Shown here: in pieces, positions 23,901-27,402 of the stretch | Layout of the letters: the number at the start of each line of letters is the position of its first letter | Position numbering within the stretch: the first letter of the stretch is position 1 | NCBI GenBank assembly: GCA_965233585.1 | Contig: CBDDTI010000224.1 | Coordinates: forward strand, 1 to 41,928 | Source of the DNA: a bacterium | GTDB taxonomy: Bacteria > SAR324 > NAC60-12 | Length of the DNA: 41,928 bases | Direction: 5' to 3' | Program-made: the position numbers and the translations under genes | Notes under the pieces: generated by a model | The model's database searches: none | Seen by the model: only the letters and a program-made list of their open reading frames with translations | Told to the model about the DNA's origin: nothing

Positions 23901-26630
23901 CATGACTTTTCTTATCTTTAGCAGCTTCATGCCCTTTTTTAGGTAGTACTGCAGGTTTTCCAGATGCACCACGTACTTCTTTCGGTCATAAAAAGTGCTC
24001 AACAATTTCTTGCTTTTATATCTTTTGTTCCTATAATCTCGAGGACAGTGTTGTTTCAGTAAACGACGATTGTAAGGTGATAGATGTTTAAAAGAAACCG
24101 TGTCTGTATACGGAGCCAGCGGAAATTGATCGTGTGCCTGAAAATAATAGTGTATAAGTTGCTGGAATTAATAAATAACGTGCTGCACCAAAGATTAGAT
24201 TTACCTGATGAAGATGAGATGGATAATGCAAATCAACTTCAAACGCATAACCTGTATCGTCTTGCGCAGGAATATTGATGATATCTTTAGCTGACCATCT
24301 TTTAAATTCGCTTTTTGGAACCCATTTAAAATCAGAAACTGGTAACTTTAAAGTTTCCATACTTCCGTATAAGTTATTGGCTAAAAAAAATTTGTTGAGT
24401 TAAAACAAAATAATTTTATTAAATAATACAGTTTAAAATTACCATCAATGTATAACAAGTGATCGCCGCTTTTTCCAGGATTGCTATTCCCTTTGGCATA
24501 ACGCTGGGCGATAAAACTTTGCCCACCTCTAATACCCTTTGTGAAAAAACGCTCCATTTCAGGATCAGAATAGACATCTAATGATCCAAGAGGTTTGGAA
24601 GTTTCGGATTTGGTTGTGAGCTTATTATCTGATTTAGCTTGTTCTGAATTTTCAAAAAACATGAGCATGACGTCAAAACTCAATCCAGGAATTCCTAATT
24701 AAGGTTAAATAAATTTAGTATTACAATACATTTGACATTAAAGAATAAAACTTACCTAGATAATAAACAGGATCCAATTGAAAATGCTCCATCACCATTT
24801 TTCTGTATTGAAGAAATGCTTCACACAACAAAACAACGTCTAAAGAACAATAGAGCATCATGTAATCCGCCACATTTTTGCATTTAAATGATTTGAAGAC
24901 CTCTTGAGCATGGGAATAATCCGCTTCCGTAATGTGTTCTTCGTTTAATTCCGAATAAAAAGAGTCTTTGGACGGAAGGTTTCGGCTTTTCTTCATCTCT
25001 TGTAGGGATTGGAAATGTTCATAACAAAAGACACCTTTTCTTTTTAAAAGTTTCAAAGCTTTTGATTTTTGACGAGCAGGAATTTTTTTAAATCTTTCCA
25101 TTTGTTGTAAAATGGGAAAGGAAAAATTTGAGGTCTGATTTAAATCTTTAACAAGAGCATCCAGACTGGCAGAAATGTGCTCTAGTGAATCTTGAATTTT
25201 AAATTTGCCCAATGTAAGAGTGCGAAACTTTTCACTATTTTTTGCCAAAACTTCTGGATTATACTTAAATTGAGAAAGATTCAATTCTTTCACAATAAGA
25301 TGCAAATCATATCTGAAACGCATGCATAATTTGTATTATTTTGATAACTAAACTCAATCAAAAATTTCTTACCCTTGAGCGTTGTGGAAAAAAATTGGTG
25401 TACGGTATGGACCGGATCTTGTCAAGTTACACAACGAATGAGCCGCACCCATTATTTTGCCTGACACGTGATCATGATCTAAAACTTTTCTGTAATTTCT
25501 AGACTCATTTTTAAACTGGCCGCCACAAATATGACAAACCTTTGCTTCTCGATACATTTGCCATTCTTGCGGACTAGATTGACTTTTAACAACATGTCTA
25601 AATTTTTGTTTTCTTTCTTCAACAACCTTTTCATAAAAAGTCAATCGATTCAAAAAATGTTTAACTGCATCTTCTCCTAAATATTCTTCTTGAAAAAATA
25701 CTTCATCGTCGGAGTCCACAAAAAGCAAGCTATAGCCCACCGGTCTATGCACGTTTATATCGTCACTGGTGGGAAAAGCACACAGACACTCAGTTTTTGA
25801 ACAAAATCGACACTTAGATCGTTCTTTGTTTCTTTGAAGCACACTTTCAAAATCGCAAAATCCTACAACAGGAGCTTGAAATTTATGTCTGTGATTGGTA
25901 AAACTTATGGAGAAATTTTTGGGTGGGTAGACAGCACGTTGTTTATCGTAGCAAGTTTGTTCATGTTTTTCCTTCTTAAATTTTGATCGGAATCGTAGCA
26001 GACATTTTTCACAATAGATGTGCTTCTGTTGAACCGCTTTTTTGTCCGACACCAGTCTAGCCCGATTATTTAAAAAACCTTGAATTTTGGTGATTTTAAA
26101 AAAATGGTGCTGTTGATTTAAATCTTTAATCTTTTTAAACTTGGAAGAAAAACCCGATTTAACATTAGAACTAGAATTGTCAATCTTTTTACGAGAAGAT
26201 TTTTTCTTGCATCCAGCTAATTTTGGAAGGCGGGAAAATAGAGATTCATGTTCAGTAGAGATTTCAGGATCATATTTTATCATTAACAAATTTAAAATGT
26301 TTTTGTTTCTGTCGTTGTTTTTATTAGTAAAAAATCCTAACTTCGAAACTTGACCCTCACTCTCATAAAAATCGAAATTGAAATTGGTAAATGGGAGTTT
26401 TTTTTTAAAAATTTTTTTAAATTACAAAATTGAAGAGGAAACTTGAAACCTTTTACATTAAACTTTTTAAGAAATCTTATTGGCATTTGACGAAAATCAA
26501 CAACGGAAACCGTTTCTTCAGGAAAAAGATGTCTAATGTACAGATAAAGAAAGTTAAATTTATCGTATCGAGTTTTCCATTCCAAGCAATTAGATCTCCT
26601 TAAATCATGCGGAATTTCTATAAAATCCAT
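20959..26630 (-). CDS. Protein-primed DNA polymerase B, 6 exons, ~1134 aa, with degenerate vOTU-like domain and EndoVII/HNH insertion
   Basis: Exons 26630-25373, 25312-24756, 24694-24443, 24380-24205, 24137-23771 and 21752-20959. GT-AG splicing rebuilds FHNAQGYDLH, YYLGIPGLSFD, YIDANNLYG, HQAHDQFPLAP and KLFANSTFGKFIENVRN. CDFES and SDTDS are present. One -1 frameshift in a homopolymer at 26367-26371. Confidence 0.92.
21968..22958 (+). CDS. WG/GW-repeat Gly/Ser-rich protein nested antisense in pPolB intron 5 (frameshift near 22255)
   Basis: 69 bp / 23 aa unit GASGSSGAWGSSGTANRSTWGSS giving about 17 WG/GW dipeptides. TCAGTC Inr-like motif at 21927 and AATAAA after the stop. An orthologue starts at 41039. 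Confidence 0.7.
23117..23678 (+). CDS. Second nested gene in the pPolB intron, GC-rich, unknown function (frame ambiguous)
   Basis: GC-rich island in an AT-rich intron. The 166 aa frame has an acidic patch, an R6 NLS-like run, poly-Pro and a C-terminal CxxC..HH; AATAAA near 23685 and 23700. Confidence 0.55.
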
Positions 26631-26682
26631 TTCCAAAGTTTATTTTAAATATTTTAAATAAAATAAAATAAGTCCATAAAAA

Positions 26683-27402
26683 TCAAAAACTAGTAATTTG
26701 AATATCACTAAAAGATAAAGACTCAAATCTCCATCCAGAACCTCTCATCAACAAATCTTCTTCTCGATTTACTAAATTATTTAATAATTTTTGGACCTTG
26801 CCTTTTAACGAGCGAGATGAATCAAAAGACGTGAATTGAATGTAGCTGGTTCTTAGAGCAAAGACATCTCGATCATTGGACAATATTTGAGGCGACGACT
26901 GATCAGAAGGGTTTTCAGCAGTATCATCAATATTGGTATTACCATGCTCAATGTCTTTTTTCTCTGCAGCGGAATTCAAATCAGGAATTTGATACGCTGC
27001 TGTCAAGATAAGGGCGACTTTAACCGTAAAAGTTTTACTTAATTCGTGACGAATAACGTCAACTATTTCTTGTTTATTTTTTTTATTTGCAGCAAAACCA
27101 TTAAGTGTTTCTTTCGAAAAAATGTGTTTTCGATAAAATTTGATTTTTCCGTTAAGTGCTGATTTGTGTAATAAATATTGTAAATTTTCCAAATGAGAAG
27201 CATCAATGTGAGAGACTAAATCTTTTCTTGATTTAAAGGAACTTACTTTGTTCTCGCAAAATGGGCATTGAAACGACTGATTAAGCGGAGTCCGAGTTTG
27301 AGATTTTGTGGTTTTGCGATGACGGAATAATTGATGTTTGTCGCGAGAAGATTTTCTAACAAACGATTTTTGACATTCAGGACAAACGTAGGATTTTGGC
27401 AT
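26683..27402 (-). CDS. Zinc-finger plus terminal-protein-like domain, normally the N-terminus of Polinton pPolB
   Basis: Two C2H2 fingers, KVALIL.A.Y, and C-terminal EEDLLMRGSGWRFESL; the GSGW motif marks the pPolB N-terminal region. Confidence 0.75.
   Translation of the reverse strand: MPKSYVCPECQKSFVRKSSRDKHQLFRHRKTTKSQTRTPLNQSFQCPFCENKVSSFKSRKDLVSHIDASHLENLQYLLHKSALNGKIKFYRKHIFSKETLNGFAANKKNKQEIVDVIRHELSKTFTVKVALILTAAYQIPDLNSAAEKKDIEHGNTNIDDTAENPSDQSSPQILSNDRDVFALRTSYIQFTSFDSSRSLKGKVQKLLNNLVNREEDLLMRGSGWRFESLSFSDIQITSF

Follow-up and report, generated by a model that had tools for sequence, protein, structure and literature searches.

The window examined here is the whole of contig CBDDTI010000224.1 (C224; 41,928 bases), which belongs to a 12-Mb assembly of 747 contigs and carries a Polinton/Maverick-type element at about 11.7-28.3 kb. 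Analysis of the replication genes of this element showed two separate, conserved open reading frames (ORFs) under selection. ORF A is homologous to the N-terminal part of the protein-primed family B polymerases (pPolBs) of relatives, and its model has a core with the little-finger-like fold of a terminal protein (TP). ORF B is the start of the polymerase gene; the N-terminus of the polymerase is modelled as a vOTU-like domain, and the column of the catalytic Cys is occupied by Asn. We consider it likely that the element is a Polinton/Maverick whose replication module underwent gene fission where its TP domain borders on its vOTU domain, giving a free TP and a polymerase with a Cys-less vOTU-like domain. 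What is new is the combination of the split with the loss of the Cys in a polinton lineage; the split alone was already known.

Separate genes for the terminal protein and the polymerase

An earlier note on this DNA had placed the stop of ORF A at TGA 26685-26683, followed by an AT-rich spacer of about 50 nucleotides (nt) and a polymerase start at ATG 26630. These coordinates were correct, and the spacer measured 52 nt (Table 1). ATG 26630-26628 opens the frame MDFIEIPHDL..RSNCLEW..YDKFNFLY, and in the window's family an in-frame TAA stands in the spacer four codons ahead of it. By blastn, the 1151-nt region was present in full length 25 times in the assembly, and the copies formed groups of about 98-100, 91 and 79% identity. 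The note had proposed to look in other copies for conservation of the stop and spacer, or else for a continuous ORF. The TGA and the ATG were kept in 25 of 25 copies, the spacer was 49-53 nt long within the family, and a continuous ORF was found neither in these copies nor in 14 more distant loci.

Spacer identity between groups was 82-88%, against 61-73% for the region upstream of ORF A, and the spacer was more conserved than synonymous sites, the synonymous divergence (dS) of the flanking ORFs reaching 0.3-0.9. The first polymerase codons were likewise conserved above synonymous sites between groups; a 28-base block around the ATG (26603-26630) was identical in 24 of 25 copies, and one copy had two changes just after the ATG. 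ORF A was intact, at 239-253 amino acids (aa), in 24 of 24 parsed family copies. Between copies of different groups, with dS as high as 0.9, its ratio of nonsynonymous to synonymous divergence (dN/dS) was 0.12-0.16, and that of the first 86 ORF B codons was 0.10-0.28. Both ORF A and the start of ORF B are under purifying selection.

The 14 more distant loci, from the same assembly, were all split; in each, the polymerase ATG comes after the stop of an intact ORF A, which is 210-220 aa long. Compared with the window, ORF A was 25-33% identical and the polymerase N-terminus (ORF B) 33-39% identical. The gap from stop to ATG was 2-3 nt in nine of these loci, 18-20 nt in three and 79 nt in two. 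At the shortest junctions the stop is followed by two or three A and then the ATG; this family was located on contigs C58, C193, C435, C401, C382, C164, C530, C47 and C426 (e.g. C58:6452-7638). The order and adjacency of the TP and polymerase genes were kept in 39 of 39 loci. The split layout is neither a chance nor an assembly feature, and the split state is ancestral to the whole clade, which includes about six families in the assembly, with TP identity down to 25%, plus metagenomic relatives.

The window's own copy carries a private break between ORF B and ORF C and a later frame change, the copies are many and the assembly is fragmented. On these grounds the split could be put down to decay, with dead copies, a polymerase cut by a nonsense or frameshift mutation, and ORF A left as a functionless relic. 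Such an origin is scarcely credible, as ORF A was intact in every parsed copy and in 14 of 14 distant loci, its dN/dS stayed low even at the largest dS, the spacer was conserved, and the polymerase start Met was kept in relatives at 45-50% identity (polymerase homologues P0057-P0061, which begin at the same Met as ORF B).

The polymerase is a string of ORFs, and three of the gaps between them are canonical short introns. Since introns in the polymerase can be removed in frame, the host splices the gene, and the alternative of a single gene, with ORF A and ORF B as exons that flank a short spliceosomal intron and are spliced into a normal fused TP-vOTU-pPolB, was taken seriously. The 60-nt GT-AG intron (GTAAGA..TTTCAG) was the positive control for a genuine intron of the polymerase gene. 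Its removal restored HNAQG/YDLHLIV in the Exo I region, and the G of HNAQG is also the last residue of the homologues P0001 and P0005; intron removal also restored YID/ANNLYG (motif A).

At the ORF A/B junction, removal of the 73-nt intron proposed in the earlier note (26690-26618, GT..AG) does join the frames in the window's copy, and the acceptor-like TTTTATAG at 26625-26618 was invariant in 24 of 25 copies; the donor position, however, was GT in only 3 of the 25, GC in 11 and AT in 11. All frame-joining, stop-free GT/GC..AG pairs were enumerated over the 24 parsed copies. Only one in-frame candidate was shared by 24 of 24; its donor falls in a Ser codon, synonymously AGT or AGC, 23 nt upstream of the stop and reads GC in the 91% group, and splicing there would cost the TP half of its last strand. 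All substitutions in GSGWRFESLSFSDIQIT were synonymous, and ORF A is therefore coding to within two codons of its stop. In addition, the 2-3-nt spacers of the distant families leave no room for an intron, and the stand-alone TP recurs in relatives down to about 25% identity. By these sequence comparisons the intron was rejected as very improbable, with the 14 distant loci appearing to settle the matter.

Fusion by readthrough or frameshifting was also considered and rejected: the frame offset was 1 or 2, never 0, and varied among the family copies, and an in-frame TAA precedes the ATG. Among the distant loci the offset was 0 in 3 of 14, as expected by chance.

With respect to expression, gaps between co-directional genes in the element were either 1-7 nt or 47-73 nt. 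The motif TTATTTAAA lies about 30 nt before the polymerase ATG in the conserved spacer and likewise before the ATPase gene. The pattern TTATTTAAR had 10 matches against 4.2 expected, a number reached by 1 of 100 shuffles, and two of the matches were upstream of the ATPase gene and ORF B. These matches are suggestive of a shared promoter element, and the spacer motif hints at an own promoter for the polymerase gene. The 2-3-nt junctions of the distant families suggest either an internal promoter, within the TP gene, or re-initiation on a bicistronic message; as a corollary, the polymerase may there be translated by termination-re-initiation.

Table 1. Features of the TP and polymerase genes in the window
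Feature	Position	Strand	Description
ORF A, stand-alone TP gene	26683..27402	-	ATG 27402, 239 aa, stop TGA 26685-26683
First C2H2 zinc finger, residues 5-28	27319..27390	-	Pfam zf-C2H2 E 3.8e-5, just under cut-off
Second zinc finger, residues 44-70 (C46, C49, H65, H70)	27193..27273	-	Pfam zf-Di19 E 2.9e-5, under cut-off
TP core, little-finger/PAD-like alpha/beta domain, residues 77-238	26689..27174	-	Predicted, AlphaFold2 (AF2) model
Ser222 codon, RGSGW loop	26737..26739	-	Candidate priming (DNA-linking) residue; alignment and AF2 model
Spacer between ORF A and ORF B	26631..26682	-	52 nt, 11.5% G+C, contains TTATTTAAA at 26661-26653
Start codon of polymerase gene (ORF B)	26628..26630	-	ATG in 25 of 25 copies
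vOTU-like polymerase domain, about residues 1-190	26062..26630	-	Two frames in this copy; AF2 model of P0001
Asn26 codon (AAC), OTU catalytic-Cys column	26553..26555	-	N-terminus of helix 26-35; alignments and P0001 model
His176 codon (QQHHFF), OTU catalytic-His column	26104..26106	-	Strand 174-180; alignment and P0001 model
Private 1-nt length difference in T run	26366..26372	-	Frame shift from ORF B to ORF C, window's copy only
Rest of polymerase exon 1	25369..26289	-	CCHC finger, FCDFE (Exo I), Endonuclease-VII-like insert; ends HNAQG at first intron
First polymerase intron	25313..25372	-	60 nt, GTAAGA...TTTCAG

Homology and predicted fold of ORF A

A full HMMER scan (phmmer) with ORF A over 1.84 billion representatives gave 47 hits, and 16 sequences were inspected. 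Eleven of the 16 were stand-alone proteins of 203-234 aa, ending 15-41 aa after a GSG[WF]/GSNW motif. Fused hits were P0041 (656 aa, E 4.7e-6) and P0044 (577 aa, E 4.7e-5), both of which run on into a Cys-bearing OTU motif, a His motif, a zinc finger and FFDFE, and P0041 also into HNFSGYD. A word-based search for longer homologues of ORF A found none, and the fused forms surfaced only in the full scan.

A search with the polymerase N-terminus retrieved eight metagenome loci, five of them fused. Four (L001, L002, L003 and L006) had a single ORF in the order fingers, core, GSGW-type motif (GSGW, GTGW or GSGY), linker, Cys-OTU and Exo, with the polymerase domain present where the record reaches; L006 matched Pfam DNA_pol_B_2 (E 1.9e-29). 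The record of the fifth, L007, breaks off at the first Exo motif and shows the same fused layout as far as that. ORF A could be aligned over its full length with the fused N-termini of P0041, P0044 and the five metagenome ORFs.

Structural searches of BFVD with the ORF A model matched the N-termini of adintovirus and bidna-like pPolBs. The 560-aa protein A0A7D4VFN9 of Drosophila-associated adintovirus 2 matched the models of ORF A (E 6e-9) and of P0001 (E 8e-11) alike, and was regarded as a fused form for that reason; bidna-like and MELD-virus pPolBs were also among the BFVD matches. Further searches of viral contigs and genome contigs with the family alignments yielded no confirmed additional locus. 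These comparisons identify ORF A as a homologue of the N-terminal zinc-finger and TP domain that relatives carry fused to pPolB.

The fused relatives also indicate where the two genes part. In 7 of 7 a short L/A-x-G-[GSAR] motif follows the last TP strand by a few residues, and ORF A ends within about 7 residues of the position of this motif. The motif may represent a processing site; section 9 of PMC11071308 places the cleavage between TP and vOTU, which agrees with the position of the motif.

The AF2 model of ORF A (mean pLDDT 83) showed two fingers followed by a beta-alpha-beta-beta-alpha-beta core with strands 87-96, 126-139, 177-184/188-191 and 225-238, helices 100-121 and 196-219, and an acidic disordered loop at about residues 142-176. 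C7, C10, H23 and H28 of the first finger and C46, C49 and H65 of the second were invariant in 21 aligned sequences. In VIA, 9 of the 13 top rows for the model were little fingers of Y-family polymerases (Z 5.9-8.2), including Pol iota (Z 8.2, root-mean-square deviation (rmsd) 3.1, 101 aligned), Pol IV (Z 8.2) and Pol eta (Z 8.1); the isolated Pol IV little finger gave Z 7.5 with rmsd 2.8 Å over 95 residues. An ESM Atlas search with ORF A returned zinc-finger clusters only, and sequence profiles against PDB chains returned C2H2 fingers only.

In the passages of PMC11071308 that deal with TPs, Krupovic et al. ascribe the little-finger fold and ancestry both to PRD1-like TPs and to domain D1 in the pPolBs of polintons, and section 7 describes the linking residue as a Ser, Thr or Tyr between helix 2 and the last strand with a Gly or Pro nearby. 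ORF A showed both properties of PRD1-like TP/D1, namely a little-finger/PAD-like fold and a hydroxyl residue with Gly before the last strand. RGSGW forms the loop between helix 196-219 and strand 225-238 in the model. In the 21-sequence alignment, position 222 was Ser in 20 sequences and Thr in one, G221 was invariant and W224 was present in 19; over the 25 copies the Ser222 codon was TCT or TCC, a synonymous difference. Ser222 is thus a candidate, and judged by alignment and model a likely one, for the acceptor of the first nucleotide. ORF A was read as the TP because it is homologous to the fused pPolB N-termini and its model has the little-finger fold; it would be a free TP of about 27 kDa, and its priming function is a prediction.

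A different role was weighed, in which ORF A has no more than a common origin with the pPolB N-terminus, has given up priming and acts as a zinc-finger protein in DNA binding or regulation. The two C2H2 fingers, the long acidic disordered loop and the TBP-like and TFIIB-like proteins encoded by the element would suit such a role, as would the statement in the TP passages of PMC11071308 that TP function in polintons is predicted and has never been shown experimentally. Yet a hydroxyl residue stands before the last strand in 21 of 21 sequences, beside the conserved G221 and W224, no other TP-like domain precedes the vOTU in the polymerase, and order and adjacency with the polymerase are kept in all loci. 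A purely regulatory ORF A is therefore quite improbable, and we retain the reading of ORF A as the TP.

The vOTU-like domain and its catalytic column

A private break in the frame of the window's ORF B/C was the reason to model a homologue, P0001 (420 aa; 90% identity to ORF B), in its place. The model had a mean pLDDT of 69, with 65-91 in ten-residue blocks over residues 1-120. Helix 1 comprised residues 26-35 and started at Asn26, and strand 174-180 held His176. In VIA, 8 of the 10 top rows for residues 5-182 were OTU domains (Z 5.0-5.5, rmsd 3.6-4.3 Å, 102-112 residues), among them OTUD1 (Z 5.5, rmsd 3.8, 105 aligned), Otu2, OTUD3 and OTUB1; the vOTUs of the nairoviruses Taggert, CCHF and Kupe matched at Z 5.1-5.2. 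A profile comparison of split with fused sequences by hhalign gave probability 100 and E 8e-42. The structure prediction that the earlier note had asked for thus returned a little-finger fold for ORF A and an OTU fold, at middling Z, for the polymerase N-terminus, and the models support an OTU fold for the latter.

The Cys-to-Asn replacement, which the earlier note had read from its own alignment, was reproduced by MAFFT, by profile-profile alignment (hhalign) and by L-INS-i: all three paired Asn26 (DKFNFLY) with the invariant Cys of the fused forms, and His176 (QQHHFF) with their invariant His. By L-INS-i the column held Asn in 14 of 14 split proteins and Cys in 7 of 7 fused ones; by MAFFT it held Asn in 8 of 9 split proteins, with one Lys, and Cys in 8 of 8 fused ones. 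The 25 genome copies all had an Asn codon (AAC 14, AAT 11), and the distant loci read DEKNFLY in 14 of 14. The catalytic-His column was His in 21 of 21 sequences (14 split, 7 fused). Measured against what defines a vOTU, the OTU fold and the His in strand 4 were present and the Cys at the N-terminus of helix 1 was absent. These alignments suggest that the protease activity of the vOTU was lost.

Another Cys might nevertheless keep the domain active as a cysteine protease or deubiquitinase. Cys15 was conserved in 25 of 25 family copies, it stands in SNCLEW, which resembles the classic OTU motif, and His176 is invariant. Distant families also carry a Cys four residues after the Asn (position 30). 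Cys15, however, was Ser in P0057, P0059, P0060 and P0061 (4 of the 7 split relatives P0001, P0005 and P0057-P0061) and in the distant families, so that the Cys of RSNCLEW, named in the earlier note as a possible occupant of the catalytic site, does not hold that place; in the P0001 model it lies in the strand before helix 1, not at the helix N-terminus. Position 30 is Leu in the window's family, and over residues 1-200 no column held Cys in 90% of the split sequences. Section 10 of PMC11161782 reports that the vOTU is active in a coral polinton whose TP has its own gene. For the window's clade an active vOTU-like domain is nonetheless highly unlikely, and loss of the catalytic Cys is the preferred reading.

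Several points weigh against the reading as a whole. The OTU Z scores are middling, and for that reason the fold call leans also on homology to the fused pPolBs. Foldseek with the P0001 model against the PDB gave nothing at E <= 1e-3, OTU deubiquitinases appearing only at E 0.8-1, and Pfam had no OTU match for ORF B, for P0001 and P0057, or for the fused relatives. The AF2 models were built on shallow alignments of 18 and 21 rows, and the assignment of Asn26 and His176 to the active site consists of alignment columns and model secondary structure. The split and the Asn are probably a single evolutionary event, so that their association has an effective n of about 1. To these are added the experimentally unproven TP function mentioned above and the state of the window's own copy, which with its private frame break and at least one further frame change is probably non-functional. 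RNA runs matching 24600-27500 were looked for and none was found, and a non-canonical join of ORF A and ORF B is still formally possible. Four matching runs behaved as DNA: their contigs crossed the known introns unspliced and had no joint at the ORF A/B junction; since the known introns are unspliced in them, these runs are silent on splicing.

Under the fission reading, the free TP, with two C2H2 fingers that probably bind DNA ends and a little-finger-like core, would bind the polymerase and receive the first nucleotide from it, with Ser222 as the probable acceptor. It would then depart with the DNA end, and proteolytic release would be unnecessary because the TP was never covalently joined to the polymerase. 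The polymerase would start directly with the vOTU-like domain, from its own promoter or by translational re-initiation. As the earlier note had proposed, the split may have made the protease dispensable; the nucleophile would have been replaced by Asn while the His and the fold were kept for a non-catalytic role. The Asn-bearing OTU fold is presumably retained by selection for a structural or docking role. A complex prediction for the TP core with the vOTU-like domain scored 0.00, with controls not run, and gives no verdict on binding.

Relation to known systems and the surrounding element

In adenoviruses the TP gene precedes the polymerase gene, as it does here, and the adenovirus TP precursor (pTP) is larger and is cleaved by adenain. 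The Adenoviridae E2B region further resembles the window's element in having a free TP and a vOTU-like domain on the polymerase with at least one active-site residue replaced (PMC11071308, section 9). According to section 7 of the same source, strand 1 and helix 1 of adenovirus pTP are separated by a large helical insertion and both termini carry helical extensions, and no zinc fingers are described there. The ORF A model, in contrast, had N-terminal zinc fingers, no helical insertion after the first strand, and its end at the last strand. Unlike adenoviruses, the window's element combines a 239-aa TP bearing two C2H2 fingers with an rve-chromo integrase and host-type introns, and the structural similarity of the polymerase N-terminus to adenovirus Pol was weak (BFVD E 0.017-0.11). 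The element has the adenovirus-like arrangement of a separate TP and a putatively inactivated vOTU; this is the same arrangement, not membership.

The split would be convergent with that of adenoviruses rather than homologous. It is unlikely that the Maverick clade is, beyond mere convergence, the surviving stock or a sister group of the adenovirus replication module; if it were, fission and nucleophile loss would go back to a single occasion, among the integrating polintons of aquatic animals, at a time when adenoviruses had not yet lost the integrase.

The preprint PMC11071308 states, in its passages on pPolBs, that the TP is fused in all eukaryotic pPolBs except those of adenoviruses. Section 10 of Krupovic et al. 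(PNAS 2024, PMC11161782) reports a separate TP gene and a catalytically active vOTU in a polinton of Stylophora pistillata (StCAV) and states that TP splits arose independently in different polintons. StCAV, like the window's element, has a separate TP gene and a vOTU fused to pPolB; its vOTU, which was compared by description only, is reported active with Cys and His present, whereas the window's clade has Asn. For the split alone, the novelty implied by the earlier note was overstated, a separate TP having been published for StCAV; for the split together with Cys loss it stands, as no polinton combining a split TP with a Cys-less vOTU was found in the passages on TP and vOTU of the polinton/adintovirus literature.

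Fused pPolBs of polintons, adintoviruses and MELD viruses (TP-vOTU-Exo-Palm; P0041, P0044, loci L001-L007 and A0A7D4VFN9) have the same domain order as found here and share the zinc fingers, the GSGW loop, the His motif and the Endonuclease-VII-like insert. Unlike the split form, they consist of one ORF and have the catalytic-column Cys and the L/A-x-G-[GSAR] linker motif. The pPolB of Bidnaviridae has, as here, replaced vOTU-like active-site residues, and bidna-like pPolBs were among the best BFVD matches to both models; in Bidnaviridae, in contrast to the separate TP gene here, the polymerase keeps its fused TP and stays on the DNA in its entirety (PMC11071308, section 9).

In the 2024 model for Preplasmiviricota the vOTU cuts the TP off the polymerase, and adenoviruses lost this activity because the TP became a separate gene. 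The split cases documented before were adenoviruses, with an inactive vOTU, and one coral polinton, with an active one. The clade described here adds what appears to be the full adenovirus-like state inside integrating polintons, split, Cys-less and under selection, in many copies and several deep families. It would be a second data point for the proposed order of cause and effect, split first and vOTU loss second, natural material on the present role of the inactivated domain, and a concrete group for polymerase trees on the origin of adenoviruses. Gene finders will call the TP gene and the intron-split polymerase as unrelated fragments.

The element encodes an rve-chromo integrase, an A32-like ATPase, an adenain-like protease, TBP-like and TFIIB-like proteins and, on the minus strand, the pPolB. 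Pfam matched the integrase (rve E 1.6e-9, plus chromo); DNA_pol_B_2 on one polymerase exon (E 9.6e-5), Pox_A32 (E 5e-4) and Peptidase_C5 (E 5e-3) were under the cut-off. The Polinton/Maverick gene set (pPolB, rve integrase, packaging ATPase and adenain-like protease) was thus present in one element; the class assignment rests on these replication, integration, packaging-ATPase and protease genes.

Further along the polymerase gene, the 1-nt difference in the T run was absent from the 24 other copies, which agree with one another, and P0001 and P0005 are continuous there; either the window's polymerase is broken at this point or the T run is misassembled. At 24088-24120 the polymerase frame changes without a GT-AG intron, with the second frame open across the ORF end, and this may be another private break of the copy. 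The Endonuclease-VII-like insert matched Pfam Endonuclease_7 (E 1.6e-5). Between the vOTU-like domain and Exo I there is a C-x2-C-x12-H-x3-C finger (window about 26011-25951, P0001 residues 207-227), which was invariant in split and fused relatives and C2H2-like by PDB profile search. Between the piece of the polymerase that ends at 23754 and the one that starts at 21813, the gene is interrupted by about 1.9 kb (21814-23753; 47-52% G+C) in which numerous repeat-rich ORFs overlap on both strands.

Positions 32800-41928 of the window hold a second, partial copy of the element with identical gene order; its polymerase leaves the contig end, and its TP/polymerase junction lies outside the window. 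The TBP-like gene (15758-16300, minus strand; Pfam TBP E 3e-18) adjoins the TFIIB-like gene (14929-15684, minus strand; TFIIB zinc ribbon E 2.4e-8), and second copies of the two were found at 35087-35491 and 34258-35013, both on the minus strand. A 779-aa ORF at 7278-9617 on the plus strand had no Pfam match at E <= 0.01; it lies within a block of 50-57% G+C, beside the approximately 33% G+C of the element. Co-directional genes of the element were tightly packed on the minus strand, with gaps of 6, 6 and 7 nt in 11691-15684 and of 1 nt in 18163-20152. Such packing is unusual for eukaryotic genes that each need their own promoter.

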